38,072 nt of DNA from a virus (taxonomy: Duplodnaviria; Caudoviricetes). The notes under the pieces were generated by a model. That model was not told the origin of the DNA. It ran no database searches and was given only the letters and a program-made list of their open reading frames with translations. Shown one piece after another: positions 1,040 through 16,350 of this stretch; position 1 is the first letter of the stretch; each line of letters opens with the position of its first letter. The stretch is from positions 1-38,072 of IMG/VR virus record IMGVR_UViG_3300030108_003891. One strand, given 5' to 3'. The translations under genes were made by a program, and so were the position numbers.

Positions 1040-1059
1040 GAGGTCTCCAGTGGTCTGCC

Positions 1060-1088
1060 ACTGTATGGCAGGGGGTGAATGGTGTCAA
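1060..1088 (-). promoter_or_regulatory. sigma70-type promoter of the Gp88-like gene
   Basis: Minus strand TTGACA (1088-1083), 17 bp, TACAGT (1065-1060). The -10 box lies inside the inverted repeat CTGCCA-N5-TGGCAG (1055-1071). Confidence 0.8.
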
Positions 1089-1177
1089 GTAGGGGGCCAG
1101 GGGACCGCCTGGGCTCCCATGGGGTCCGTGCTCAAAGTCCAGCTTGGCGGCCCGATATCGGCTCTGGCCCCCTTAGG

Positions 1178-1202
1178 TCCCCTTCTTTTACTAAGAAGGG
1201 GA
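1178..1202. repeat. Perfect 10-bp inverted repeat (cruciform/hairpin)
   Basis: TCCCCTTCTT-TTACT-AAGAAGGGGA, with no U-tract on either side. Confidence 0.85.
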
Positions 1203-1234
1203 TACGTATAGGGGGGTACATATAGGAGAGCCGC

Positions 1235-1394
1235 ACGGGTTGGACGGGTTGAAAATGTTCGGAAAGAAGGGGCCCGAAGGGGGCCAGCAGCGATATGTGG
1301 CGTTGGCCCAGCGTTATCGCGTGGGCCCCTCATTCTGAGATGGAGTCCAGAAGGGGTCCGCAATACGTGAGGAAGGGGGCCCGCTATGCGAGAA
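1235..1394 (+). repeat. Cluster of short direct repeats
   Basis: ACGGGTTG x2 (1235, 1244). GAAGGGG at 1266, 1276, 1350, 1372. Degenerate tandem GAAGGGG-TCCGCAATACGTGAG / GAAGGGGGCCCGCTATGCGAGAA (1350-1394). Confidence 0.6.
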
Positions 1395-1499
1395 CTGGAG
1401 GCGTGAGGGGTCAGCCGCGCGTCGCTCAGAGACCTCTCAGATTCACCACCGGCCACGCATTATGGGAGGTTAAAGGCGGACAATCGGCCGCAGCTATTG

Positions 1500-1797
1500 A
1501 CGTGGCAACCGGACCGACGGCGATTCAATCCGCCAAGCATCCGAGCAGCCCGAAAATGGCCCGCGTTCAGCGCCCTGCGATATTGGGCTTGCATCCGAGA
1601 TGATGACCACCTGATGGTAATCGCATCACATCGGGGGCTGTCTCGCGGCGTCATCCGCACGCGGTACACTTGAAGGGGGGCGGCGCTGTGCCTCTCGGCT
1701 TCCCCCCGATATGCGCGCCGCTGGTCACGAGGGTGAGCGGCTGGTATCGGGGCCGCGTCCGTGTGCAGGTCCGGCGAACATGCGCCGGGGGTCTGCT
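1500..1797 (-). other. Second block of dense stem-loops; possible 3' extension of the RNA at 1799-2361, strand uncertain
   Basis: Long hairpin CCGA..UGAU..GAUUACC-AUCA-GGUGGUC..AUCA..UCGG (1595-1634) needs G-U pairs available only on the minus strand. Also CCCCGAUA/UAUCGGGG enclosing GCCGCU/AGCGGC, GCC-GAGA-GGC, and CCGGCG/CGCCGG. The helix at 1765-1796 pairs better on the plus strand. Confidence 0.35.
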
Positions 1798-1798
1798 C

Positions 1799-2361
1799 AA
1801 AAAGGGGCGGCGATTACGCGCTCGCCGGGGCGCTATGCTCCCGTGGCCACGGCACACGGGGCCCCCGTAGATGTCGCACACGGGGCGGGGCGGCTCATTT
1901 TGTAGACTGCGGGGAGCTATCCGCCGGCCTGGTTTAGGTGGTCACTCCATGGTGACCGGGTATCGGGTCCCCCTCCCGTTAGGCTATGCCGGTGGGGGTC
2001 ATGGTGGGTCATGCGTCTTCAATCGCATTACGTACGTGGGTGGACTCTTCACCGATTCGGCTTGGACGATTGCTGTCCGCGTGGCCATTTACGACGCTCA
2101 TCCTTCGCTCCCGCTGTCGCTCACGTGGGACCCAGCCGTGGCTGGTTTCCGTTCCCTTGGTGTTGCTTGGCTTCGCTTGTGGTGTTCGGCGGGTGACAGA
2201 GTCCTCCCCCTACTAATCATCGGTGGCCGAGTTCGTCTGCCCGGCTTGCGCCTCGGAGTGCTTCGGCCCTGCGGGCCTCCGCTGATTCGAGTTTGCACCC
2301 ATCGTCTTATTCGAGATTTGAAAGAGCTTGTCTCGGTGTGGCGAGGACTGTCCCCCGCCGC
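1799..2361 (-). ncRNA. Candidate large structured non-coding RNA (~560 nt), class not recognised
   Basis: Starts 5-6 nt after a sigma70-like -10 box, exactly at the first base of a ~21-bp helix (2338-2360 with 2187-2213). boxA-like GCUCUUUCAAA. Many hairpins: GGC-GCAA-GCC, GGCCC/GGGCC, CCAGC/GCUGG, GGAC/GUCC, AUGCG/CGCAU, GGUCAC/GUGACC, CCCGUG/CACGGG. Long-range GGGUCCC/GGGACCC pairing and A-rich linkers. Ends in hairpin + GCCCC + U5. No credible ORF. Confidence 0.55.
2317..2327 (-). promoter_or_regulatory. boxA-like antitermination element
   Basis: GCTCTTTCAAA ~35 nt after the predicted start, versus the rrn boxA consensus GCTCTTTAACA (NusB/NusE site). Confidence 0.55.
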
Positions 2362-2366
2362 AAAAG

Positions 2367-2396
2367 ATTCTTCACCTAAAAATTGGAAGTACGCAA
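2367..2396 (-). promoter_or_regulatory. sigma70-type promoter driving the candidate ncRNA
   Basis: TTGCGT (2396-2391), 18 bp, AAGAAT (2372-2367), with a very AT-rich tract upstream (2430-2490). Confidence 0.55.
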
Positions 2397-2424
2397 AACG
2401 CTGTACGTCTCTAATGCTGCGCTC

Positions 2425-2490
2425 TAAGTGCTTAAAATAACTGATAAAAATAAATGAAAAAAATATAGATTTATTTTAAAGAAACTTCTA
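2425..2490. promoter_or_regulatory. AT-rich island with IHF-like site / UP element
   Basis: The only strongly AT-rich stretch in the GC-rich left part. Minus strand TATCAGTTATTTT (2446-2434) is one mismatch from WATCARNNNNTTR. Several A-tracts. Confidence 0.45.
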
Positions 2491-2508
2491 TATGCCAGGT
2501 TTAACCTG
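2490..2508 (+). repeat. Copy 1 of a 19-bp direct repeat with internal palindrome
   Basis: ATATGCCAGGTTTAACCTG, 17/19 identical to 3200-3218. Contains the palindrome CAGGTT-T-AACCTG. Confidence 0.75.
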
Positions 2509-2573
2509 CCTTTTCGTGCATCACCCCCCCCTTGGTGGTTGGTTGGTTTCTTTGACTTTGAAAGGAAGTGCGC

Positions 2574-2609
2574 GCCTGTGTGTGTGCCTGCGTGTGTGCC
2601 TGTGTACAC
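2574..2609 (+). repeat. Three tandem 12-bp repeats
   Basis: GCCTGTGTGTGT / GCCTGCGTGTGT / GCCTGTGTACAC. Confidence 0.8.
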
Positions 2610-2613
2610 GTGA

Positions 2614-2630
2614 TGCAAGTCCCGTGCCAA
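2614..2630 (-). promoter_or_regulatory. sigma54 (RpoN) -24/-12 promoter
   Basis: Minus strand TTGGCACGGGACTTGCA is an exact match to YTGGCACG-N4-TTGCW. Predicted start ~2603, pointing toward the ncRNA. Confidence 0.75.
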
Positions 2631-2694
2631 ACCTGGCCAAACTTTTTTGCCTTTTTGTGTGGCGCGGTGTGGCAAGGTACGATAGTGGACAGGC

Positions 2695-3192
2695 ATGACC
2701 TTTGCTCTTGCCTTTTCCGGCCTCGCTTCAGACGCTCCGCGTCAGCGGGCGCGTTGTGCGAAGACGGGCCGTTTCGTGGCTTGGAGCAAGGTCCCTCAGC
2801 TTCGCGTTCCCGGTGCTCCCCGCGTCGTCGTCATCCCCGCCCCTGTGGTGGAGGTTGCCGAGGTTGCCGAGGTTGCCCCGGCTGCTCCCGTCGCTGAGGT
2901 TGCCCCGGTCGCCGTCGTTGACGGTGCCGAGGTTGTAGAGGCCCCCCCTGTAGTGGGCGGGTTCCTCTCCACCGCATGCGCGCACGGTGCGCGCGTGGTA
3001 GCCGGGGCTGCTGCCCTGGTGGCCGCTGGTGGCCGGTGGTTCCGCTCCAAGGCCTCGGCCCTGGTGGCTGGTGCCCGTGCCGCCCTGGTGGCGGGTGCCC
3101 TCGCCATCGGTGACGGTGCCCCCCCTGCGGATGCTGCGGCTGATGCTGGCCCCCCCCCTGTCACTATCACCGGAGGTGAGCCGTGTAGCTGA
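2695..3192 (+). CDS. Hypothetical Ala/Val/Pro-rich protein with RCAKTGRFV motif and EVA repeats
   Basis: Consistent codon pattern (GAG GTT GCC repeats). Upstream TTGTGT-17-TACGAT (2655-2683) and a downstream terminator. No SD, so possibly near-leaderless. Confidence 0.55.
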   Translation: MTFALAFSGLASDAPRQRARCAKTGRFVAWSKVPQLRVPGAPRVVVIPAPVVEVAEVAEVAPAAPVAEVAPVAVVDGAEVVEAPPVVGGFLSTACAHGARVVAGAAALVAAGGRWFRSKASALVAGARAALVAGALAIGDGAPPADAAADAGPPPVTITGGEPCS

Positions 3193-3199
3193 GTGCGCG

Positions 3200-3218
3200 A
3201 TATGCCCGGTTGAACCTG
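3200..3218 (+). repeat. Copy 2 of the 19-bp direct repeat
   Basis: ATATGCCCGGTTGAACCTG, 710 bp from copy 1. Confidence 0.75.
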
Positions 3219-3329
3219 GGTTTTTGGCGATTCGGGGTCCCCCCTCGGACGTGTGCAGGGGTCCGCGCCGAGGCCGGGCCCGAAGGGCCCCCCCGTGTGT
3301 GATCGCGGCGGTGGTGGTGGGGCGGCTTC

Positions 3330-3356
3330 GGGGGGCGCGCGAAGCCCCCCCTTTTC
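3330..3356 (+). terminator. Intrinsic terminator-like hairpin
   Basis: GGGGGGC-GCGCGAA-GCCCCCC then CTTTTCTGTT. An alternative stem GGCTTCG/CGAAGCC overlaps it. Confidence 0.6.
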
Positions 3357-3378
3357 TGTTCTTGCAGGAAGTTCAGGG

Positions 3379-3407
3379 TTGACGCAGTGTTTGACCAAAC
3401 ATAGAGT
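3379..3407 (+). promoter_or_regulatory. sigma70-type promoter with palindromic operator in the spacer
   Basis: TTGACG (3379-3384), 17 bp, TAGAGT (3402-3407). Palindrome TGTTTG-AC-CAAACA at 3388-3401. GGAG RBS before the ATG at 3425. Confidence 0.7.
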
Positions 3408-3424
3408 GGCTGCCTGGAGTAGTT

Positions 3425-4384
3425 ATGAACGATTATGTATGTCTTGCTCGTCGGTTTCCTGCTGTAGGCGTTGATGGTGTCCTGGGTGTTCCGGTCACCA
3501 ACCATGCAGAGATAGGCGAGTACCTGGAGGCGTTGCCGGTTCCCGTAGGCGAGGACAAGGTCAAGTTTGTCCGACTGACTGCGATACCGGAGCGATCCCG
3601 CAATCACCTGATGGTCAATGATGTTGTGGTCAAGTACAACGGTCTGTCCGAGCGATTCCTGGATATTCTTCGGCCAGTCAAGACGGCCCAGTACAATACG
3701 AACTTCCGATCAGGCGAAATCGACTGGGACCTGGCTGAGCAGGCCAGGCAAGAGGCATTTGAGACAGGAAAGTGGTCTCTGACTCACGATAGGTCACAAG
3801 TCGCGATTTGCGACCCTGAGGGAAACCTCGCTGTGCTCAGGGCGCATAAGGGCACACCGAGGACGCTGTTCAAGTACGCATACGCGGTATTCCTCGATAC
3901 TGATCAGGACAAAGAGCGAATCACGTACAATCCGTACAAGCAGTACGACATTTCGCCTGTGGAAAAGCCTAAGTGGGCATGGGCAACTTTCCGCTTCATG
4001 CATTTCTGGATTTTCAAGCATGGGCCTGTTGTGGAGAAGGGCAAGTGGCACAACTTCAAGAAGGCCGTCAAGAACCACCATGAGGCCATACAGCAGGTGC
4101 CTACACCGGAGATTGGCGACTATTTGAGGCTGCACACACGCAGAAACAACAAAAGATCACAAGAGTTCTGGCGGCGGGTCCGTGTGCAGTACGCTGACGA
4201 CCAAGACTCGGTGCCGAGGGCTCTGGCGTTTGTCGCATCTAAGAACGAGGTGCGCTGGGTGCGTGTACGTGTCTCTGAGCTAGACGAGTTGTTCAGATGT
4301 GCCGAATGGAGTGAATGGAGCGATCTAGGACCACCGTTTCACTTCAGCACGTTCCAGAACAAGGAGATGGTCAAGTGGAACTGA
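3425..4384 (+). CDS. Hypothetical protein (319 aa)
   Basis: Long ORF with promoter and RBS; no motif recognised. Confidence 0.8.
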   Translation: MNDYVCLARRFPAVGVDGVLGVPVTNHAEIGEYLEALPVPVGEDKVKFVRLTAIPERSRNHLMVNDVVVKYNGLSERFLDILRPVKTAQYNTNFRSGEIDWDLAEQARQEAFETGKWSLTHDRSQVAICDPEGNLAVLRAHKGTPRTLFKYAYAVFLDTDQDKERITYNPYKQYDISPVEKPKWAWATFRFMHFWIFKHGPVVEKGKWHNFKKAVKNHHEAIQQVPTPEIGDYLRLHTRRNNKRSQEFWRRVRVQYADDQDSVPRALAFVASKNEVRWVRVRVSELDELFRCAEWSEWSDLGPPFHFSTFQNKEMVKWN

Positions 4385-6168: not shown

Positions 6169-9100
6169 ATGGCGTCACTGGATGACGTACTAAAAGGCAA
6201 TCTGAGGGGCTTCCGTCGTGAGACGGGTCAGCCTGCGGAAGAGATTGCTGTCGAAGAACCTGCAATTGATGAGGTTGAACCTCCACAATTGTACGATGAG
6301 CGCGCTGAATATCGCGGTTTCAAGGTTCCGGCAGGCATGGATGCCGAGCAGACCGAGCGGTGGTTCGGTGCGATTGATGCGCGTGAGGACGAGCGAGAGG
6401 CTGCTGAGGCTGAGGCTGAGGCGGAGTTCGAGGCTGAATCTGGATTTACGACTCAGTTGTTGGGCTCGCTAGAGCGCACGGTGATGAAGGACAACCCGAG
6501 GATGGGTGCGAAGGCCGTCGAAGGTCTTGGTCGTGTGGCTGGCAGCCAAGCGATGATCGACTTTGGTTCGAAGACGGCAGCCGAGTACGACACATCAGAT
6601 GATCCGGCAGCGTTTTCTCCTCGGATTGAGAGCATCTATGATGCTGAGGGCTTCCAAGACTACATCGATTACGCGGCCTCCACTCTTGGTCAAGGTGTGG
6701 CGTCGATCGGCACCATGGCTGCGGGTGGCGCGGTAGGTGCGGCTGCTGGGGCACCATTTGGTGCTTCGGGCGTTACTGCGCGAGTGGGCGCGGTCGCAAC
6801 TGGCTTCATGATGAACTATGGAGACCTGTACGACACTTTTGTCGAGCAGGAGGGCATGGATCCTGATGATGCGGCTAAATATGCGATAGTTCCTGCGGCA
6901 ATGATGGCTGGTTTGGATGCTTTTGGTCTGGAGAAGCTTGTAAAGCCTGCAAGGGACGCGCTGTCCGATAATTTTGCGAAGCGCACCGCGCAGTTGGCGA
7001 TTCGTGGCGGTGGCACCGAGGCCGTGACGGAGGCTGCTCAGCAGGTTGTTCAGGAGTCTGCCGGTGAGATTGCCGAGGTAACGGGGCTTGCGACGGAGGA
7101 CATCGAGTTCAGCCAGCGCTTTGAGAACGTCGTCAACGCGCTTGTCGCTGGGTTCATTCCGGGTTTTGCGCTTGGCGGCACGGGTGCTGTGCGGGTGCGT
7201 CCTGAAGACGATGCTGAGGACGATGCTCCGGCGCCTCCAGCGGCTCCTGAGCCGACTGTATTGACTCAGAGGGAGGATGTTCCCGCTGAGGTTCCAGACG
7301 CCGCCACAGCCGGTGCTGAGACTGAAAGTGAAATCGCGGAAGCTCGCCGCTTGTGGCAAGAACTGGGCATTGAGTCACCGTACTTTAAGCGCAAGTTTGG
7401 AAACACGAAGGTCACCGATGACGACGGCAAGCCACTGGCTGTATTTCATGGCACATCCGGCGACTTCAATGAGTTCCGTCCAGGTTCACCCGATAGCGCG
7501 TTTGGCTCGGCCATTTACACAAGCAGCAGCACTGATGATGTAAACGTCAACTACGCCACCGCAGAAGGCCCTGACATCAAAAATAGAGTCGATCAAGCGA
7601 TTGACAGCATTGACAGTCTTGATGATTTTGATGACGACAACATCTTGGATGCGGCCAAGCGATATATGGACCGAACGGAGTCGACGGACACTGAATTGCT
7701 TGAGGCGATTAAGACTGGCGATGTCGAGAAGCTTATTGATGATTTTGAGCCCGACCTGATCGAACAACTTGCCCGACAACAAGTTCTTGGCGACGAAGCC
7801 TTCAGCGTGCTGAAGACATACGTCAACATCGAAAACCCTGTGTATCTGGATCCATCGGGCACTAAGGGCAGGACTACATTTGATCTTGAGATCGAGTACG
7901 ACGAGGACGGTGAGTTTGTAGGCGAGAGCGGCTCAGTACTGGAGTTGCTTGAGGCTATTGATGAGGTTGCTGACGACCTCTCTACTTATCAAATCGGAGG
8001 CCGTGGCCCGTATAGTGATGACGTTGACAAGCTCAAAACATTTATTGGTGAGAACTCTATTGATGGTGAGATAGACGCCCTCGATCTTTTTGAAGAAGTC
8101 AGGGGCGGTAATTACTACTTCGAGTCGGATACTGGAGGTCTGGAGAACACGGAGTTTATACGCAAAGTCTTCGAGAAGATGGGCTTCGATGGAATTGTTG
8201 CCGATGCGTACCACTTTTTTGGTGACCGTAAAGGCCCCATGGGGGCCAGAATCCCCGCAATGGCTGGCGTCACCCCCGGCACCTACCACTACATGGCTTT
8301 CAAGCCAGAGCAGATCAAGTCAGCTACCGGCAACGTAGGAACGTTTGACCCAAGCGGGAACATTCTTAAGTCAACTGCTGAGGGTGCTCAGTTTATTGGC
8401 CTTTCAGGCATGGGCGTCAATGAAGCTATTGACTTGATGTCCAGGCTTCGGACAGGCCAACAACTAGCCGACTTCATCACCAAATTTGCAGACGATCTAT
8501 CGTATCGAGAAATCTCGGAGCGTATACGTCCTCATCTTGAGAATGTTGGACTAATCGTCCTGACCGAGGACATAGGTAATTTACCTCCTGATTTTGATCC
8601 TGTCTTGGGCAGTTATTTAAGAGATATGGGGAGCACTTATAGCTCTTACGGTATTCGCGGCCTGAACCTTTCCGATGAAAAAAGTAATGATGTCATTCTC
8701 AGAGGCCGCAGGATGTACACCGGCTGTAATGCTGAGACTGCCCTTCATGAGTTGATTCACGCTGCTTCCACCAGAAGGCTGGAAGATGGACTCCTGAAGG
8801 AGAACAAAGGGACTGATGTCGCCAAGGCCGCGCAGGAGCTTGTAGACCTACATAAGCAGGTTGAGCGCATCATCAGGAAGCGCAGGAAGAAGAAGAAGGT
8901 CGACCCCGAGTTTGACTCCATCTTGAAGCGTGGACTTGAAAATGTTCATGAATTTGTCGCGTATGGCATGACCAATAAGAAGTTTCAGGAGTTCCTGATG
9001 ACCATCGGGTCAAGGAACAGGAACCTCTGGAACACTTTTGTCGAGAAGATTTCCAACCTTCTGGGTATTGGCAAAGACAAGCGAAGCGTTCTGACGGACT

Positions 9101-12100
9101 TGATTCGTGTCACAGACGAGCTTTTGACTGCTGATTTGGGTCAGTTGAGATCTCGTTTGAACACAGAAAACATCAATATGTCACGAATTTTTAATCGTGA
9201 CGTGCAACCTTCAACCGATGTTGATTCAAATACACAAATTGTCAGGCAGTCAGCCACCACAAGCAATGTGATCGGGTTCGGTGACCTCAGCGCTTATCAA
9301 GCGATTGATGAGATCAAAAAGGTTGAGACGGGCATGGAACTGATCGATTTCATTGTCGATCGAGCCGACAACCCCGCATACAAGGCAATCGCAGAGCGTA
9401 TCCGGCCCTTCCTGGACAAGACGATGGTGGCTACGATCTCAAAAATCGAGGACGTTCCACGAAGCATTATGCTCGCCATCGACGATGGAGACTTGGAGGC
9501 ATCTACTTTTGACCTCCTGCTCGACATGTCGAGGGAAAACACCCGCACTGGTACAAGAGGGGTGACGATAACGACGCCTGAAGATGTCGACATCGTGCTT
9601 CGTGGGCACGCCGATTTCTCTGGAGCCACAGCGGAAACTGCACTACATGAAGCGATTCATGCGGCCACGCAGAACAGGATCGCAGACGGGCAACTCAAGC
9701 AGAACAGGAAGACAGAACTTGGCAAGGCCACGACTGAGCTTGCTGCTCTTCACAAGAGGGTCAAGAAGATCCTCAAGAAGCGCAAGACCCAGAAGGGTTC
9801 TGCCCCGGCTGATCCGAAGCTGTTTGATGTAGTCCTGGAGTATGGTCTTGAAGACTTGAATGAGTTTGTTTCCTACGGAATGACAAACAAGACCTTCCAA
9901 GACTTCTTGATGAGCATCGAGTCAGAGAACAAGAGTCTGTGGAACACCTTCGTGGAGAAGGTAGCGAACCTCCTGGGCATCGAGAACCAGACTGTGTTGA
10001 CTGATTTGATTCGTGTGACGGATCAGATTTTGTCTGCCGATGTCGAAGAGCTTCCTGCACGAGTCCGTACGCGGTTCATCAACAGAATGCTTGGGTCTGA
10101 TCAGGGTACAAAGCCATCTCTCTTGGGTGGGTCGAATCCTGTATTTGAGTCTGAACTTGAAAAAATCATTCTCAATCAAACACCGAACAAGATTGGCGTT
10201 GACGATATTGAGCAGTTCCTCAACAAGAAAGGAGCTAAAAAGTCAGAAATCGCGGACACTAAGATCGCGGAGTTTATCGCGAACGCGAAGGCCGAAGGCA
10301 AGAAGAGCGTCAGCAAGGATGAGTTGATTCAGCACCTTGAGGACGACAAGGTTCAGATCAAAGAAGTGCGGCTTGACCGTAATCGGCGTGAAGCACCACA
10401 ATATTTAAAAGATGCTGAAATTGCAGCCGACGAGGCCTTTAAGGACATTTATGACGAGGTCAAAGAACTGGCCTCGATTATGGATCCCAATTCGTCTGTC
10501 ACTGATGTAGTCCACAAGTATTCCAATAACCCAAACCATTTCTTTGATTTGTACGTTGATTACGTTGGAGATCTTGGGGATCTTGACAATTACGTCGACG
10601 AGCTTTTAGATCCAGATGTCTATGGTCCTGTAAAAGAAGTCGTGGATCTTGTAAGCGAATATCTTGTTTCTGAATGGACGATTGATGATGTAAAACTAAT
10701 CACCAAGGCTGCAAATGTTGTGAACGCAAAGCTTAGTGATTTGAAATATAATAAGTTTATAGACGAACAGCGTAGGTTTTTATCTGAATCAAGACTAAAT
10801 AATTTTTCCCCAGCAATAGTAGAAGGTGCAAAAAATATTACTGAATACCAAAATCTTCAAGAAATAGATCGTATCTTTCTAAGAATGGGGGAAGTCGAAT
10901 CTAGATTTCTTGCTTTTAAAAAGTTCAGCAATATTCCTAATGTAAAAAAATATTTGAAACTTAAAAAACAGTATTTGAAGCAAGAGAAAAGTTTCTTTAA
11001 AGAAGACGAAAGGTTCAACCCTAGATGGGATTCATGGACCATACCTGAGGGTGAAAACTACCAAGAGATTCTGATCACGGTGCCCATGAGCCCGAAGGAA
11101 AAAAGGGCAAGGGCAGAAGTCCAAAGGCTAGAAAAAAAACAGCTCGATCGCGCATTGGATGAGAACATAAGCCTAAGTTCTAGAGCGCCTTCGAGCCCTG
11201 AAATGCAGAACATCTCGGATGAACTTCGACTCGCAGAAAGTAATCTTAAAAAGGTACAATCGAAGCCATTCCACGAATCTCATCATGAATACTTTCCTAA
11301 CGTTATGGTCCACATCCGAACGAAGGACCGTATAGACAGTAAGGGTCGTAAGATTCTGTTTGTTGAGGAGATTCAGTCTGACTGGCACCAGAAGGGCCGC
11401 AAGCGGGGCTACACGCAAGAGGAAAATGATGCAAAGATGGCAGAGGCAACAGACAAGCTTCTTGACTTGGAGTTTGCTCGTAATGAAGCATACAGGATGC
11501 CAGATGGTGAAATCCTGAACGAACGGCATACGATCTCGGATGAAGAATATACTGCGCGGAACGAAGCCTACAGAGAAGGAGAAATACTGGTCCGAAAGCA
11601 AAAAGATGTCATTGTAGGTATTAGGAAAGGTCCAGTCCCCGATGCTCCCCTCAAAGACACCAAGGAGTGGATGTCTCTTGCCATCAAGCGTATCTTCCGT
11701 GAGGCCTCCGAGCAGGGCTACGACGGCGTGGCGTTTACTCGTTCAGATCTCATCACGCCGATCGTCTCATTCGATCCTGGTGCCACGCTATCTATTCTTA
11801 CGTCGGGTAGTCCCGCTAAGGCGCTAATGTCAGAGATCGAACGCTTGAAAAAATCAGGTCGTGATGCCATGCATCACAATAATCTTGGTGAAGAGGTCGA
11901 AAGAATATACGGTGGAAACAAGTATATTTACGACAAGTTGATTCCCAGCATCGCCAAGAAAGAATCTAAAGCGAAGCAGGAGACGACATACATCGAAATG
12001 ATGGAAACGGGGTTCTCAAAAGTCGGAAAACCCCGAACCCCAGGAGGGCCGCCGAGAACTGAAGTGATGCAGACAACGCTTGATCGGCTTGTTCGTGATG

Positions 12101-13002
12101 GTGGTGTTGTCGAAGTCCCCTTCTTTGAACTCACCGATAAGGTCAAAGACCGGGTCAGCAAGCCTCAGAAGCTGTACAGCCTAGCGCTTCCTGCACTTGT
12201 CGTAGGAGCCGCCGCATCGGAGGAGGAGGAGCTTTCTCCGGCTGCTGCTCTCATGTCGCTCGGCAAGGCCGGAATGGCGCTTTATCGCAAGCTCACGGGC
12301 TCCAATGAGGAGGGAAACCCTGCCGAAGAGCTTGCCCCCATGAGATTGTCTGAGCGTTCGTACTCACCTGTGGACTCGATCGTGACGTATACAGATGTCG
12401 GTCAATCAAAGGCGGAGTTCGATCGTCGTCGTGAGATGGCAAACAAGTATGAGCCCATGCTGTTTGAACTCATGAAGATGGAGGCCGACTTCTATGAGAT
12501 GGATGAGGACTCCGATAAGGCCAAGGAGCTTGGTGCTCGGTACGAGGATCTACTGAAGCAGTACGAAAAGATCGATGATGATCTCTTCTCTGATGAGTAC
12601 GAGCGGTTCCTGAAGGGGACTGACTACTACTACGAGACCAGTGAAGAAGGCATCGAGAACTTCGACGTGGATCGTGCGTTCAATGTGATGAACCCAGGCT
12701 CTGATATCGAGATGGACATCAACCTGAGGACCACTCAAGAGATGATGCAGCGCAAGCGGTTCGATCGCATGATGGAGCGCGGCGGAACTCTGGTCGACTT
12801 GGCTGGACAGAACTCTTCAATCAACAGGCTGATTGTGCAAAAAGCACAGGCATTTAATCATCCGGTTCAAACAGTTCAGTTGAATGAATCTGATAAGATG
12901 TTCTTGGAAAAAGATTTAAGTAATCTTGAAGAGTTGAAAGAAGACGGTTTGATATCGTATCTGTTATACAAAGAGTTGAAAGGCGACGTAATGTTGTTCT
13001 AG
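6169..13002 (+). CDS. Large polyvalent virion/ejection protein: membrane-interacting N-terminus, ART-PolyVal-like ADP-ribosyltransferase, two zincin metallopeptidase domains, conserved EEIQSDWHQ domain
   Basis: Gly/Ala hydrophobic stretches and a TEAVTEAAQ motif. ART-like GKPLAVFHGT..IYT..YVNIENP..GFDGI..AFKPEQIKSATGNVGTFD. HELIH (8746-8760) and HEAIH (9646-9660). GENYQEILI..VHIR..LFVEEIQSDWHQKGR..VPDAP..GYDGVAF. Confidence 0.85.
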   Translation: MASLDDVLKGNLRGFRRETGQPAEEIAVEEPAIDEVEPPQLYDERAEYRGFKVPAGMDAEQTERWFGAIDAREDEREAAEAEAEAEFEAESGFTTQLLGSLERTVMKDNPRMGAKAVEGLGRVAGSQAMIDFGSKTAAEYDTSDDPAAFSPRIESIYDAEGFQDYIDYAASTLGQGVASIGTMAAGGAVGAAAGAPFGASGVTARVGAVATGFMMNYGDLYDTFVEQEGMDPDDAAKYAIVPAAMMAGLDAFGLEKLVKPARDALSDNFAKRTAQLAIRGGGTEAVTEAAQQVVQESAGEIAEVTGLATEDIEFSQRFENVVNALVAGFIPGFALGGTGAVRVRPEDDAEDDAPAPPAAPEPTVLTQREDVPAEVPDAATAGAETESEIAEARRLWQELGIESPYFKRKFGNTKVTDDDGKPLAVFHGTSGDFNEFRPGSPDSAFGSAIYTSSSTDDVNVNYATAEGPDIKNRVDQAIDSIDSLDDFDDDNILDAAKRYMDRTESTDTELLEAIKTGDVEKLIDDFEPDLIEQLARQQVLGDEAFSVLKTYVNIENPVYLDPSGTKGRTTFDLEIEYDEDGEFVGESGSVLELLEAIDEVADDLSTYQIGGRGPYSDDVDKLKTFIGENSIDGEIDALDLFEEVRGGNYYFESDTGGLENTEFIRKVFEKMGFDGIVADAYHFFGDRKGPMGARIPAMAGVTPGTYHYMAFKPEQIKSATGNVGTFDPSGNILKSTAEGAQFIGLSGMGVNEAIDLMSRLRTGQQLADFITKFADDLSYREISERIRPHLENVGLIVLTEDIGNLPPDFDPVLGSYLRDMGSTYSSYGIRGLNLSDEKSNDVILRGRRMYTGCNAETALHELIHAASTRRLEDGLLKENKGTDVAKAAQELVDLHKQVERIIRKRRKKKKVDPEFDSILKRGLENVHEFVAYGMTNKKFQEFLMTIGSRNRNLWNTFVEKISNLLGIGKDKRSVLTDLIRVTDELLTADLGQLRSRLNTENINMSRIFNRDVQPSTDVDSNTQIVRQSATTSNVIGFGDLSAYQAIDEIKKVETGMELIDFIVDRADNPAYKAIAERIRPFLDKTMVATISKIEDVPRSIMLAIDDGDLEASTFDLLLDMSRENTRTGTRGVTITTPEDVDIVLRGHADFSGATAETALHEAIHAATQNRIADGQLKQNRKTELGKATTELAALHKRVKKILKKRKTQKGSAPADPKLFDVVLEYGLEDLNEFVSYGMTNKTFQDFLMSIESENKSLWNTFVEKVANLLGIENQTVLTDLIRVTDQILSADVEELPARVRTRFINRMLGSDQGTKPSLLGGSNPVFESELEKIILNQTPNKIGVDDIEQFLNKKGAKKSEIADTKIAEFIANAKAEGKKSVSKDELIQHLEDDKVQIKEVRLDRNRREAPQYLKDAEIAADEAFKDIYDEVKELASIMDPNSSVTDVVHKYSNNPNHFFDLYVDYVGDLGDLDNYVDELLDPDVYGPVKEVVDLVSEYLVSEWTIDDVKLITKAANVVNAKLSDLKYNKFIDEQRRFLSESRLNNFSPAIVEGAKNITEYQNLQEIDRIFLRMGEVESRFLAFKKFSNIPNVKKYLKLKKQYLKQEKSFFKEDERFNPRWDSWTIPEGENYQEILITVPMSPKEKRARAEVQRLEKKQLDRALDENISLSSRAPSSPEMQNISDELRLAESNLKKVQSKPFHESHHEYFPNVMVHIRTKDRIDSKGRKILFVEEIQSDWHQKGRKRGYTQEENDAKMAEATDKLLDLEFARNEAYRMPDGEILNERHTISDEEYTARNEAYREGEILVRKQKDVIVGIRKGPVPDAPLKDTKEWMSLAIKRIFREASEQGYDGVAFTRSDLITPIVSFDPGATLSILTSGSPAKALMSEIERLKKSGRDAMHHNNLGEEVERIYGGNKYIYDKLIPSIAKKESKAKQETTYIEMMETGFSKVGKPRTPGGPPRTEVMQTTLDRLVRDGGVVEVPFFELTDKVKDRVSKPQKLYSLALPALVVGAAASEEEELSPAAALMSLGKAGMALYRKLTGSNEEGNPAEELAPMRLSERSYSPVDSIVTYTDVGQSKAEFDRRREMANKYEPMLFELMKMEADFYEMDEDSDKAKELGARYEDLLKQYEKIDDDLFSDEYERFLKGTDYYYETSEEGIENFDVDRAFNVMNPGSDIEMDINLRTTQEMMQRKRFDRMMERGGTLVDLAGQNSSINRLIVQKAQAFNHPVQTVQLNESDKMFLEKDLSNLEELKEDGLISYLLYKELKGDVMLF

Positions 13003-15581: not shown

Positions 15582-15964
15582 TGGGCAAGAAGACTTCCCA
15601 AAAGTCTCTGGATACCTGGACCAAGCAGAAGTGGACGACGGCATCAGGAAAAAAGAGCGGCGACACCGGAGAGGTGTATGCCCCCAAGAAGACGATCGAT
15701 GCATTGAAATCGTCTCCGTCTGGGCGTAAAAAGCTGGCCGCAGCTAATCGCAAAAAGAGAGAAGCAACCAAGAAGGGCAAGCAGTTTGCATCTCACGGCC
15801 TCCATAAAGGAAAAAAGCGGTCGGAGAAGGGCAATCCAGCAGAGGACAAGTTTCTGGCCAAACACATGCGGATGCAATACAAAAAGAAGCCCAACATGAC
15901 CGAGGCCGAGCGTAAGCGAGAACTCGCCATAGGGTACAAAAAATTTGAAAATAGGAAGAAGTAA
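15581..15964 (+). CDS. Small basic protein (DUF5872-like, C-half)
   Basis: SQKSLDTWTKQKWTT..GEVYAPKK..KKREATKKGKQF; TGATG coupling. Confidence 0.75.
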   Translation: MGKKTSQKSLDTWTKQKWTTASGKKSGDTGEVYAPKKTIDALKSSPSGRKKLAAANRKKREATKKGKQFASHGLHKGKKRSEKGNPAEDKFLAKHMRMQYKKKPNMTEAERKRELAIGYKKFENRKK

Positions 15965-16350
15965 TGAGCGTGAATAAAGCAATCCTCGTTGGCCGTCTTG
16001 GAGTTGATCCTGAGCTTAGGAACACTGGCACAGGCACAAGCGTCGTCAACATCCGCATGGCGACCACAGATCGACGCAAAGAAGGCGACGAGTGGGTAGA
16101 TCACACCGAGTGGCACAACGTCACTGTGTGGGGTCGCACAGCCGAGAACGTGGCGAAGTTTTGCTCCAAGGGCAAAGAGATCTACGTCGAGGGTAAGATT
16201 CAAACCCGTAAGTACACTGACAAGTCAGGTGTAGACCGCTACTCCACTGAGATCGTGGCAGACAACGTCCGGTTCTTGGGTAGCCGTAATGACAGCGCAC
16301 CCATGCGTCCATCGGCTGCGCCAGCAAACGACGAGCACATCCCGTTCTAG
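15964..16350 (+). CDS. ssb: Single-stranded DNA-binding protein
   Basis: VNKAILVGRLG.DPELR, TEWHNVTVWG, KGKEIYVEGKIQTR, C-terminal DEHIPF. Confidence 0.97.
   Translation: MSVNKAILVGRLGVDPELRNTGTGTSVVNIRMATTDRRKEGDEWVDHTEWHNVTVWGRTAENVAKFCSKGKEIYVEGKIQTRKYTDKSGVDRYSTEIVADNVRFLGSRNDSAPMRPSAAPANDEHIPF

Follow-up and report, generated by a model that had tools for sequence, protein, structure and literature searches.

An uncatalogued class of large structured phage RNA with a predicted loop-loop contact

Comparison of related loci points to a class of large structured RNAs in phages that is real and has not been catalogued, one member of which is encoded in a 38,072-nt stretch of viral DNA, here called the window. 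The core of this RNA, designated type A, has a length of ~530 nt (2327-1799, minus strand) and was modelled with 95 pairs in 18 helices. A large structured RNA of a new kind, ~560 nt long and comparable to GOLLD and ROOL, had been proposed in the initial annotation, and this is supported here by covariation, by the conserved position of the promoter and the boxA-like motif, and by the lack of an Rfam match. With a probability of about 0.5, this RNA would be a trans-acting non-coding RNA that forms a ROOL/GOLLD-like scaffold closed by a kissing contact between a CACG and a CGUG loop.

Genomic setting and extent of the RNA

The virus record corresponds to the 38 kb window and is estimated to be 52% complete. 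The five DNA runs in which at least half of the stretch is present all carry the label marine metagenome, and two of them may be its source. The window encodes a terminase, a major head protein, an SSB, RusA and a 2277-aa polyvalent protein (6169-13002, plus strand), in which an ART-PolyVal domain and a stretch resembling a PHROG annotated as virion RNA polymerase were observed. When the stretch was compared by blastn with 50,697 annotated phages, no match was obtained. tRNA genes could be found neither in the window (ARAGORN) nor in six loci or the complete genome of a type-A relative.

Approximately 1.6 kb without a recognised gene separate a GP88-family gene (1039-134, minus strand; PF17338, E 3e-39), which is the downstream flank of the RNA, from a divergent ORF of unassigned function (2695-3192, plus strand), which is the upstream flank. 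This ORF is 57-81% identical in nine relatives and is a good marker of this phage clade. Its N-terminal ~55 aa (PRQRARC..GRF.AW) are conserved and are followed by a variable tail rich in Ala, Val and Pro; no Pfam or PHROG match was obtained. A counterpart was not seen in L002 and L003 (L-numbers denote loci in viral contigs or metagenome sequences that carry a related region), where a CA-rich repeat was found at that place. The early genes have a separate promoter-like site (1088-1060, minus strand; TTGACA-17-TACAGT), which matches the consensus at 10/12 positions. At 1081-1360, the most stable folding of the region was observed on both strands (z down to -4.4), with minus-strand values below z -2.8. 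This segment contains an inverted repeat (1155-1188/1263-1296) and, in relatives, short repeated motifs, and is possibly an origin or a terminal signal.

The tract from 2361 to 1500 had been described as one RNA of ~860 nt without a convincing ORF. That it lacks a conserved ORF was confirmed, as stop codons are present in all three minus-strand frames of 7/7 type-A sequences. On the plus strand, type A has one stop-poor frame (0-1 stops), the reading phase of which is shifted by indels between sequences, and a 189-aa plus-strand ORF of the window (1871-2440) gave no Pfam or PHROG match. The ~560-nt unit within the tract was retained, but not the single long RNA: a separable module lies at 1787-1680, and 1680-1500 is weakly conserved, with a similarity to relatives of just 68-74% at ~1520-1416.

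The RNA could not be matched to a known class, as had been noted. No match at the gathering score of Rfam 15 was found in the whole window (best E 2.6 within 1040-3430) or in six relative loci, and ribozyme or large-RNA families gave none at E<=5 in seven more loci. The literature searched held no description of the RNA family; the spreadsheets and the document from the supplements of PMC10690425 did not contain the motif or contig terms, and other supplement files may hold fragments.

Promoter, leader hairpin and boxA-like motif

Transcription is predicted to start at about 2361. The promoter-like site preceding this position (2396-2367, minus strand) consists of a -35 element TTGCGT (2396-2391), an 18-nt spacer and a -10 element AAGAAT (2372-2367). 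The sigma70-like promoter of the initial annotation is poor in the window itself (7/12, missed by the promoter scan), but 8-10/12 matches were found in five of the six other type-A loci. In those relatives the end of the promoter is separated from boxA by 42 nt, compared to 39 nt in the window.

A 5' leader hairpin of 8 bp with an ACAG loop (2359-2340, minus strand) takes the place that the boxB-like hairpin has in rrn leaders. Such a local hairpin is predicted in 7/7 type-A leaders and is weak in five of them (-4.9 to -9.0 kcal/mol). A longer 5' helix of 21 bp, which had been drawn from the window alone, did not stand up to comparison: its energy of -36.7 kcal/mol in the window compares with -28.5 and -31.2 for two relatives, which form it via G/C runs, and with -15.7 for four others.

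The boxA-like motif placed at about +35 was recovered as GCUCUUUCAAA at 2327-2317, invariant in 7/7 type-A sequences. Taken one position further, as GCUCUUUCAAAU (2327-2316, minus strand), it is likewise invariant in type A (7/7), and variants are present in all other RNA types, so that a boxA-like variant heads every related locus examined. We take the motif at 2327-2316 to be boxA-like by its resemblance to the boxA consensus. In lambda and rRNA antitermination, boxA is bound by NusB/NusE, as described in passages of PMC4807359.

Related loci and RNA types

Homologues were searched with the flanking proteins and with RNA motifs. The locus was found in 12 further viral contigs, and of 40 metagenome pattern matches 29 were retained as resembling the RNA; the remaining 11 were discarded as chance matches, and L077 among the 29 is identical to the window. 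When the pattern CTTT-AAATC-CGAATAAGA was used in the viral scan, two of five matches were family loci and three were AT-rich chance matches, and a loose 3' pattern gave 5 true matches out of 29. Every full-length locus combines a long non-coding tract with a boxA-like motif and with a promoter-like site or leader hairpin.

Type A comprises the window, L010, L014, L059, L080, L083 and L090, which are 83-98% identical to each other; the core of the window shares 83-85% identity with its six relatives. Thirteen distinct sequences, L004 and L060 among them, form type B, and two (L008 and L073) form type C. The type-A profile matched the whole of L060 (E 1e-10), and its matches to L004, L008 and L073 covered the 3' domain, with E values of 4e-5 to 5e-4; L004 has both the 5' motif and the 3' domain in common with the RNA of the window. 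Judged by these matches, types A, B and C are homologous. Neither of the two core alignments includes duplicates, near-duplicates or partial sequences (L058, L061, L065, L068, L071, L075, L076, L077, L086 and L092-L095).

The same locus is occupied by other RNA types, designated D (L001, L051), E (L002, L003), F (L053) and G (L054, L055). Types D-G gave no significant match to the type-A profile or to R1, a model of the 3' domain. R1 likewise found nothing significant in ROOL, and its best E value (0.08) was at an unrelated locus. Therefore, types D-G are tied to the family by position, boxA and loop pair alone. The tract of type G (L054 at 3774 and 3602, L055 at 868; minus strand) is a different large non-coding one, and in L054 two boxA-like motifs lie ~170 nt apart.

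Fold and covariation

A stability above that of shuffles was not observed. Compared with dinucleotide shuffles, z was -0.28 for 1500-2361 and -0.57 for 1795-2361, and sliding minus-strand folding within 1801-2380 gave no value below z -1.2. A folding energy no better than that of shuffles speaks against the RNA by the criterion set in the initial annotation, and the case therefore rests on sequence comparison.

RNAalifold, a helix scan and the comparison with type B were combined into the type-A model, in which 99.2% of cells pair. More than 15 hairpins had been counted in the ~860-nt tract, in agreement with the 18 helices modelled here, 12 of which contain at least one two-sided change. Covariation supported the fold: in type A (n=7), 20/95 pairs change on both sides, compared to a shuffled mean of 7.7, with 0/500 shuffles reaching 20 and slid partners giving 0-2. 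In type B (n=13), 19/76 pairs are two-sided and slid controls gave 1-3; one of five covariation measures (further pair types) was not above shuffles in this type. When tree-based events were counted in the variable helices only, at least 25 two-sided versus 4 pair-breaking events were found in type A, and 33 versus 11 in type B. Helix models and covariation counts share the same alignments of related sequences and 8 of the 20 two-sided pairs in type A stem from L014 alone, so that the changes counted are less independent than the numbers imply. That two separate alignments, A and B, agree is a stronger point than the raw counts.

Among variable pairs, G-U outnumbers A-C by 8:1 in type A and 11:4 in type B, a count that is biased since the helices were chosen on the minus strand; the excess favours this strand. 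In an unbiased helix scan the strands were not separable, with 5 versus 7 helices having at least two compensated pairs in type A and 5 versus 3 in type B.

According to the model, the 5' domain is closed by pairing of 2305-2289 with 2047-2034 and is followed by a 3' domain of ~240 nt, which ends in the hairpin 1827-1808. The long-range closing helices (within 2305-2034, minus strand) pair 2305-2296 with 2042-2034, 2292-2289 with 2047-2044 and 2225-2219 with 2056-2050. Seven two-sided changes, every one from L014, were found in these helices in type A, and the equivalent closing helix of type B has one, which divides 7 from 6 sequences.

Several contacts read from the window alone were not maintained. 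The proposed long-range helix GGGUCCC/GGGACCC is complementary in 2/7 type-A sequences, and its strand 2133-2127 belongs to the CACG hairpin, where it forms the 3' arm and two pairs are compensated. The stem below the presumed GCAA GNRA loop contains an A-C mismatch in 4/7 type-A sequences, and the GAGA GNRA loop is real but sits in a different module. Two other candidates were also rejected: a pairing GGACUCU/AGAGUCC is broken by L014, which compensates the competing helix, and the register of a palindromic self-pairing site (2035-2030) moves from sequence to sequence.

A pair of invariant complementary loops

A hairpin at 2156-2127 (minus strand) carries an invariant CACG loop (2140-2137) on a covarying stem. 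This loop is kept in 7/7 type-A and 13/13 type-B sequences, and also in L008, L073, L001/L051 and L002/L003. In the 3'-domain alignment, a second hairpin (1860-1840, minus strand) has an invariant CGUG loop (1851-1848), which is complementary to CACG. CGUG is present in 21/21 sequences of this alignment, most of which were found via a pattern containing CGUG, so that in those sequences the CACG side alone counts as an independent observation. When the viral scan was repeated with a pattern blind to the loop, it led to the same five contigs as before, with CGUG in 5/5. Both loops are invariant in 22 family sequences (20 of types A and B and both of type C), and the stems below them covary.

Types D and E, which were found through proteins, have CACG and CGUG loops in the same order, and type G has no such complementary loop pair. 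L053 (type F), the RNA of which does not align (model R1, E about 1), contains CAUG in both loops. The pair never varies within types A-C, and L053 is the single compensated case. CACG-then-CGUG tetraloops, present in L001, L002, L004 and L008, occurred in 0-4/1000 shuffles, and any CAnG loop together with its complement in 0-10/1000 (6/1000 for L053). In 3/13 type-B sequences a G-C pair in the stem under CACG is swapped to C-G without a matching change in the partner hairpin, as would be expected of a loop-loop contact rather than of one long helix. These observations suggest that the CACG and CGUG loops form a kissing contact, which may be purely intramolecular.

The 3' boundary and downstream modules

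The core ends with the terminal hairpin 1827-1808, GCCCC and a U run (together 1827-1799, minus strand). The hairpin is supported by covariation, with a C-G/U-A swap in type A and type B alike. The proposal that the unit ends here, at ~1799, is in agreement with the similarity to L010, which spans 2333-1796; a public run contig tracks 1723-2345 of the window at 96% and is divergent beyond both ends. The U run has 5-6 nt in 4/7 and 3 nt in 3/7 type-A sequences; across 23 loci it has 3-7 nt, and 3-4 nt in 10/23. Although this 3' end is listed by an intrinsic-terminator scan, stem and U run are parted by four C's and the U run is short, and therefore it is not a clear-cut textbook terminator.

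Directly downstream lies a pseudoknotted module, M1 (1787-1680, minus strand), with a hairpin at 1787-1772, a pseudoknot between 1733-1728 and 1708-1703, and a GNRA hairpin. In 14 sequences, 4 of its 29 pairs show two-sided change, and the GNRA loop is present in 12/14, in four spellings. M1 was found at 15/23 loci, and in one run contig 90 other letters take its place. An HDV-like reading of M1 was rejected by eye, as there is no room for P3/L3.

Relatives carry differing strings of structured modules of 60-130 nt downstream of the core, of which the window has one, M1. A module with the loop GGGCGUCC and the 3' strand ACAGGGCGC, which could form an H-type pseudoknot, follows the core in L003, L010, L014, L070 and L073, and at least three additional ones reappear among the relatives in different combinations. 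By eye, a conserved last module (L004 ~4352-4278, minus strand), consisting of ACAUAG, a long imperfect hairpin and GGACCCU, could be identified in nearly all relatives; directly after M1 in the window it was not recognisable. Just past the core RNA of L010 (~1990-1850, minus strand), a tRNA T-arm-like hairpin, GGUUCGAAUCC, was observed, for which ARAGORN made no tRNA call.

In types D, E and F the large RNA ends in a hammerhead-like motif, which is absent from the window. The motifs (L001 3041-2994, L002 371-322, L003 785-725, L043 4247-4198 and L053 3024-2977; all minus strand) satisfy a type III hammerhead descriptor (CUGAnGA/GAAA core, three stems, NUH site) only if 1-7 additional bases are tolerated after A9. 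RF00008 scores the L053 site alone, with 31.3 bits (E 1e-6), which is under the cut-off of 48.5. Out of 77 viral loci with a hammerhead pattern only 2 belong to the RNA family, both already known members. Hammerhead core insertions and prophage hammerheads are treated in PMC3088659, the consulted passages of which do not include the exact after-A9 variant.

Probable exchange of the RNA between phages

A tree of the neighbouring 319-aa protein was built with 16 rows, with L053 on a long branch and L054, which has no match, absent. The window clusters with carriers of types B, D and E (100/99), other type-A carriers are found in a second clade (95/94), and L080 (type A) is sister to L060 (type B) at 96/96. 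Both types A and B occur in both main clades. As RNA type does not follow the tree of the 319-aa protein, the cassette has probably been exchanged between phages. The slot is filled by at least six RNA versions that align barely or not at all, and five of these keep the complementary loop pair. A complete type-A relative encodes the recombination proteins RecT and YqaJ, a Toprim-like protein, a VapE-like protein and a helicase; among its 43 proteins scanned, no reverse transcriptase or RNA-binding partner was recognised.

For the 319-aa protein nothing was found in the ESM Atlas. The SSB (15964-16350, plus strand) has dozens of close environmental relatives, and a Myxococcota protein (71%) is the sole taxon-named one among the 120 matches listed, which is a weak hint at the host. 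GTDB genomes gave one weak 23-residue match only (L098), and as the L098 genome does not contain the RNA, no host was found.

Possible function

In the preferred reading, host RNA polymerase would transcribe the element early in infection from ~2361, and NusB/NusE would be loaded at boxA, protecting the long untranslated transcript and helping it to fold. The core would then be released near 1799 by termination or processing; in other types the hammerhead-like motif is at this end. The CACG:CGUG kissing contact is predicted to lock two domains, or several RNA copies, into a scaffold, which would act in trans as a non-coding RNA. Its likeliest purpose would be the binding or shielding of molecules of the host or the phage while the cell is taken over, since divergent versions are exchanged at one locus, as with genes under host pressure. 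Among the roles listed in the initial annotation (antiterminator, decoy or scaffold, replication primer, or a transcription unit that pulls DNA into the cell), decoy or scaffold is placed at the front, and the last would not need a conserved tertiary fold.

All covariation results are fitted equally well by a monomer, in which the kissing contact is intramolecular and a single fold acts as decoy or aptamer for a host factor such as a defence sensor, a nuclease, a Nus factor or a ribosome component. The allelic exchange between phages and the variable add-on modules resemble an arms race, and raiA RNA is presented in a part of PMC12286853 as large yet monomeric. However, the sequence was not found to mimic a tRNA, a tmRNA or any Rfam family, and no RNA-binding partner was recognised among the 43 proteins of the relative and 35 ORFs of the window, most of which are unannotated, and we consider such a decoy somewhat unlikely. 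Protein genes that directly follow the RNA modules in L008 and L073 speak against the scaffold and fit a leader acting in cis, in which boxA and the fold would modify RNA polymerase or stabilise the early message. The element heads the early genes on the same strand, several relatives have a short U run, and boxA is known from antitermination in lambda and rRNA operons (passages of PMC4807359). A cis antiterminator is nevertheless the weaker option, because the first early gene of the window has its own 10/12 promoter ~700 nt further on. In types D-F, moreover, cleavage at the terminal hammerhead-like motif would sever the RNA from any downstream message. A fold of 530 nt and 18 helices also far exceeds the needs of known cis antiterminators, HK022 put having about 70 nt, and altogether a leader role is judged unlikely.

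A new large ribozyme would fit the size and complexity of the RNA and the hammerhead-like motifs in the same transcription unit of relatives, but no match to a group I or II intron, RNase P or another ribozyme was obtained. A primer for DNA replication at the repeats at ~1500-1050 would fit the stable minus-strand folding and the inverted repeat there. It is disfavoured, as the complete type-A relative has the Toprim-like and VapE-like proteins and the helicase and no recognised reverse transcriptase, and as the distance to the downstream repeats is not fixed but varies with the modules. Catalysis and priming are together regarded as very improbable. That the element is a single-stranded DNA signal for origin, packaging or ejection and never a functional RNA is hardly credible: its position at the junction of two divergent gene blocks would suit such a signal, but conserved promoter spacing and boxA, G-U-rich variation, the four GNRA spellings in the adjacent module and the same-strand hammerhead-like motifs of relatives are signatures of RNA.

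With the scaffold retained as the preferred reading, a broader picture can tentatively be drawn, in which the locus would be an RNA-only island with an rRNA-like promoter, an interchangeable ornate RNA and plug-in modules (pseudoknots, long hairpins, hammerhead). The RNA might then represent a third class of RNA nanocage and a counter-defence weapon diversified by exchange. A direct test is offered by the 530-nt RNA, with its mapped fold, a natural compensated variant and a single predicted contact of four bases, which can be disrupted and then re-established. The divergent RNAs swapped at one locus provide a natural series by which conserved architecture can be separated from variable parts.

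Comparison with ROOL, GOLLD and rRNA leaders

In passages of PMC12286853, ROOL and GOLLD are described to build cages via conserved kissing loops. ROOL (RF03087) is similar in size to the RNA of the window, with a mean of 581 nt in the parts of PMC5737381 and PMC12286853 consulted. Both are phage-borne and, as modelled here, multistem, with long-range closing helices, few invariant bases and a conserved loop-loop pairing, which is predicted here, and by eye a long-range helix is interrupted by a GCAA bulge in both (Rfam consensus). Compared to the ~580-nt multistem ROOL, the RNAs of the present family have 530-680 nt, 15-18 modelled helices and one candidate loop-loop pair, in models that are incomplete. 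The ROOL covariance model gave no hit at E<=10 in the window and four relatives (cut-off 99.1 bits; pMP118 control 130.4 bits), and the type A and B profiles do not match the ROOL locus. In the Rfam model of ROOL the whole molecule is enclosed by pairing between its 5' and 3' ends, whereas the 5' strand of the window RNA closes at about +290, with the covarying 5' helix ending at 2042-2034 and 240 nt of 3' domain following; a covarying end-to-end helix was not found. ROOL is often located beside tRNA genes, unlike the RNA of the window.

GOLLD (RF02032) is likewise phage-borne and in part marine; its 3' domain is conserved and its 5' part varies more, and it has kissing loops, which again are predicted for the RNA described here. 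In contrast to this RNA, GOLLD is often >800 nt and near tRNA arrays, and its model gave no hit at E<=10 in the window and five relatives (cut-off 150 bits), in searches that were run without a true GOLLD control. The rRNA-operon leader and lambda nut differ from the window, which has no rRNA downstream and no recognised N-like gene, but they share with it a promoter, a short hairpin and a boxA-like motif ahead of a long untranslated RNA. The RNA of the window is not a member of ROOL or GOLLD, and at most it acts like them.
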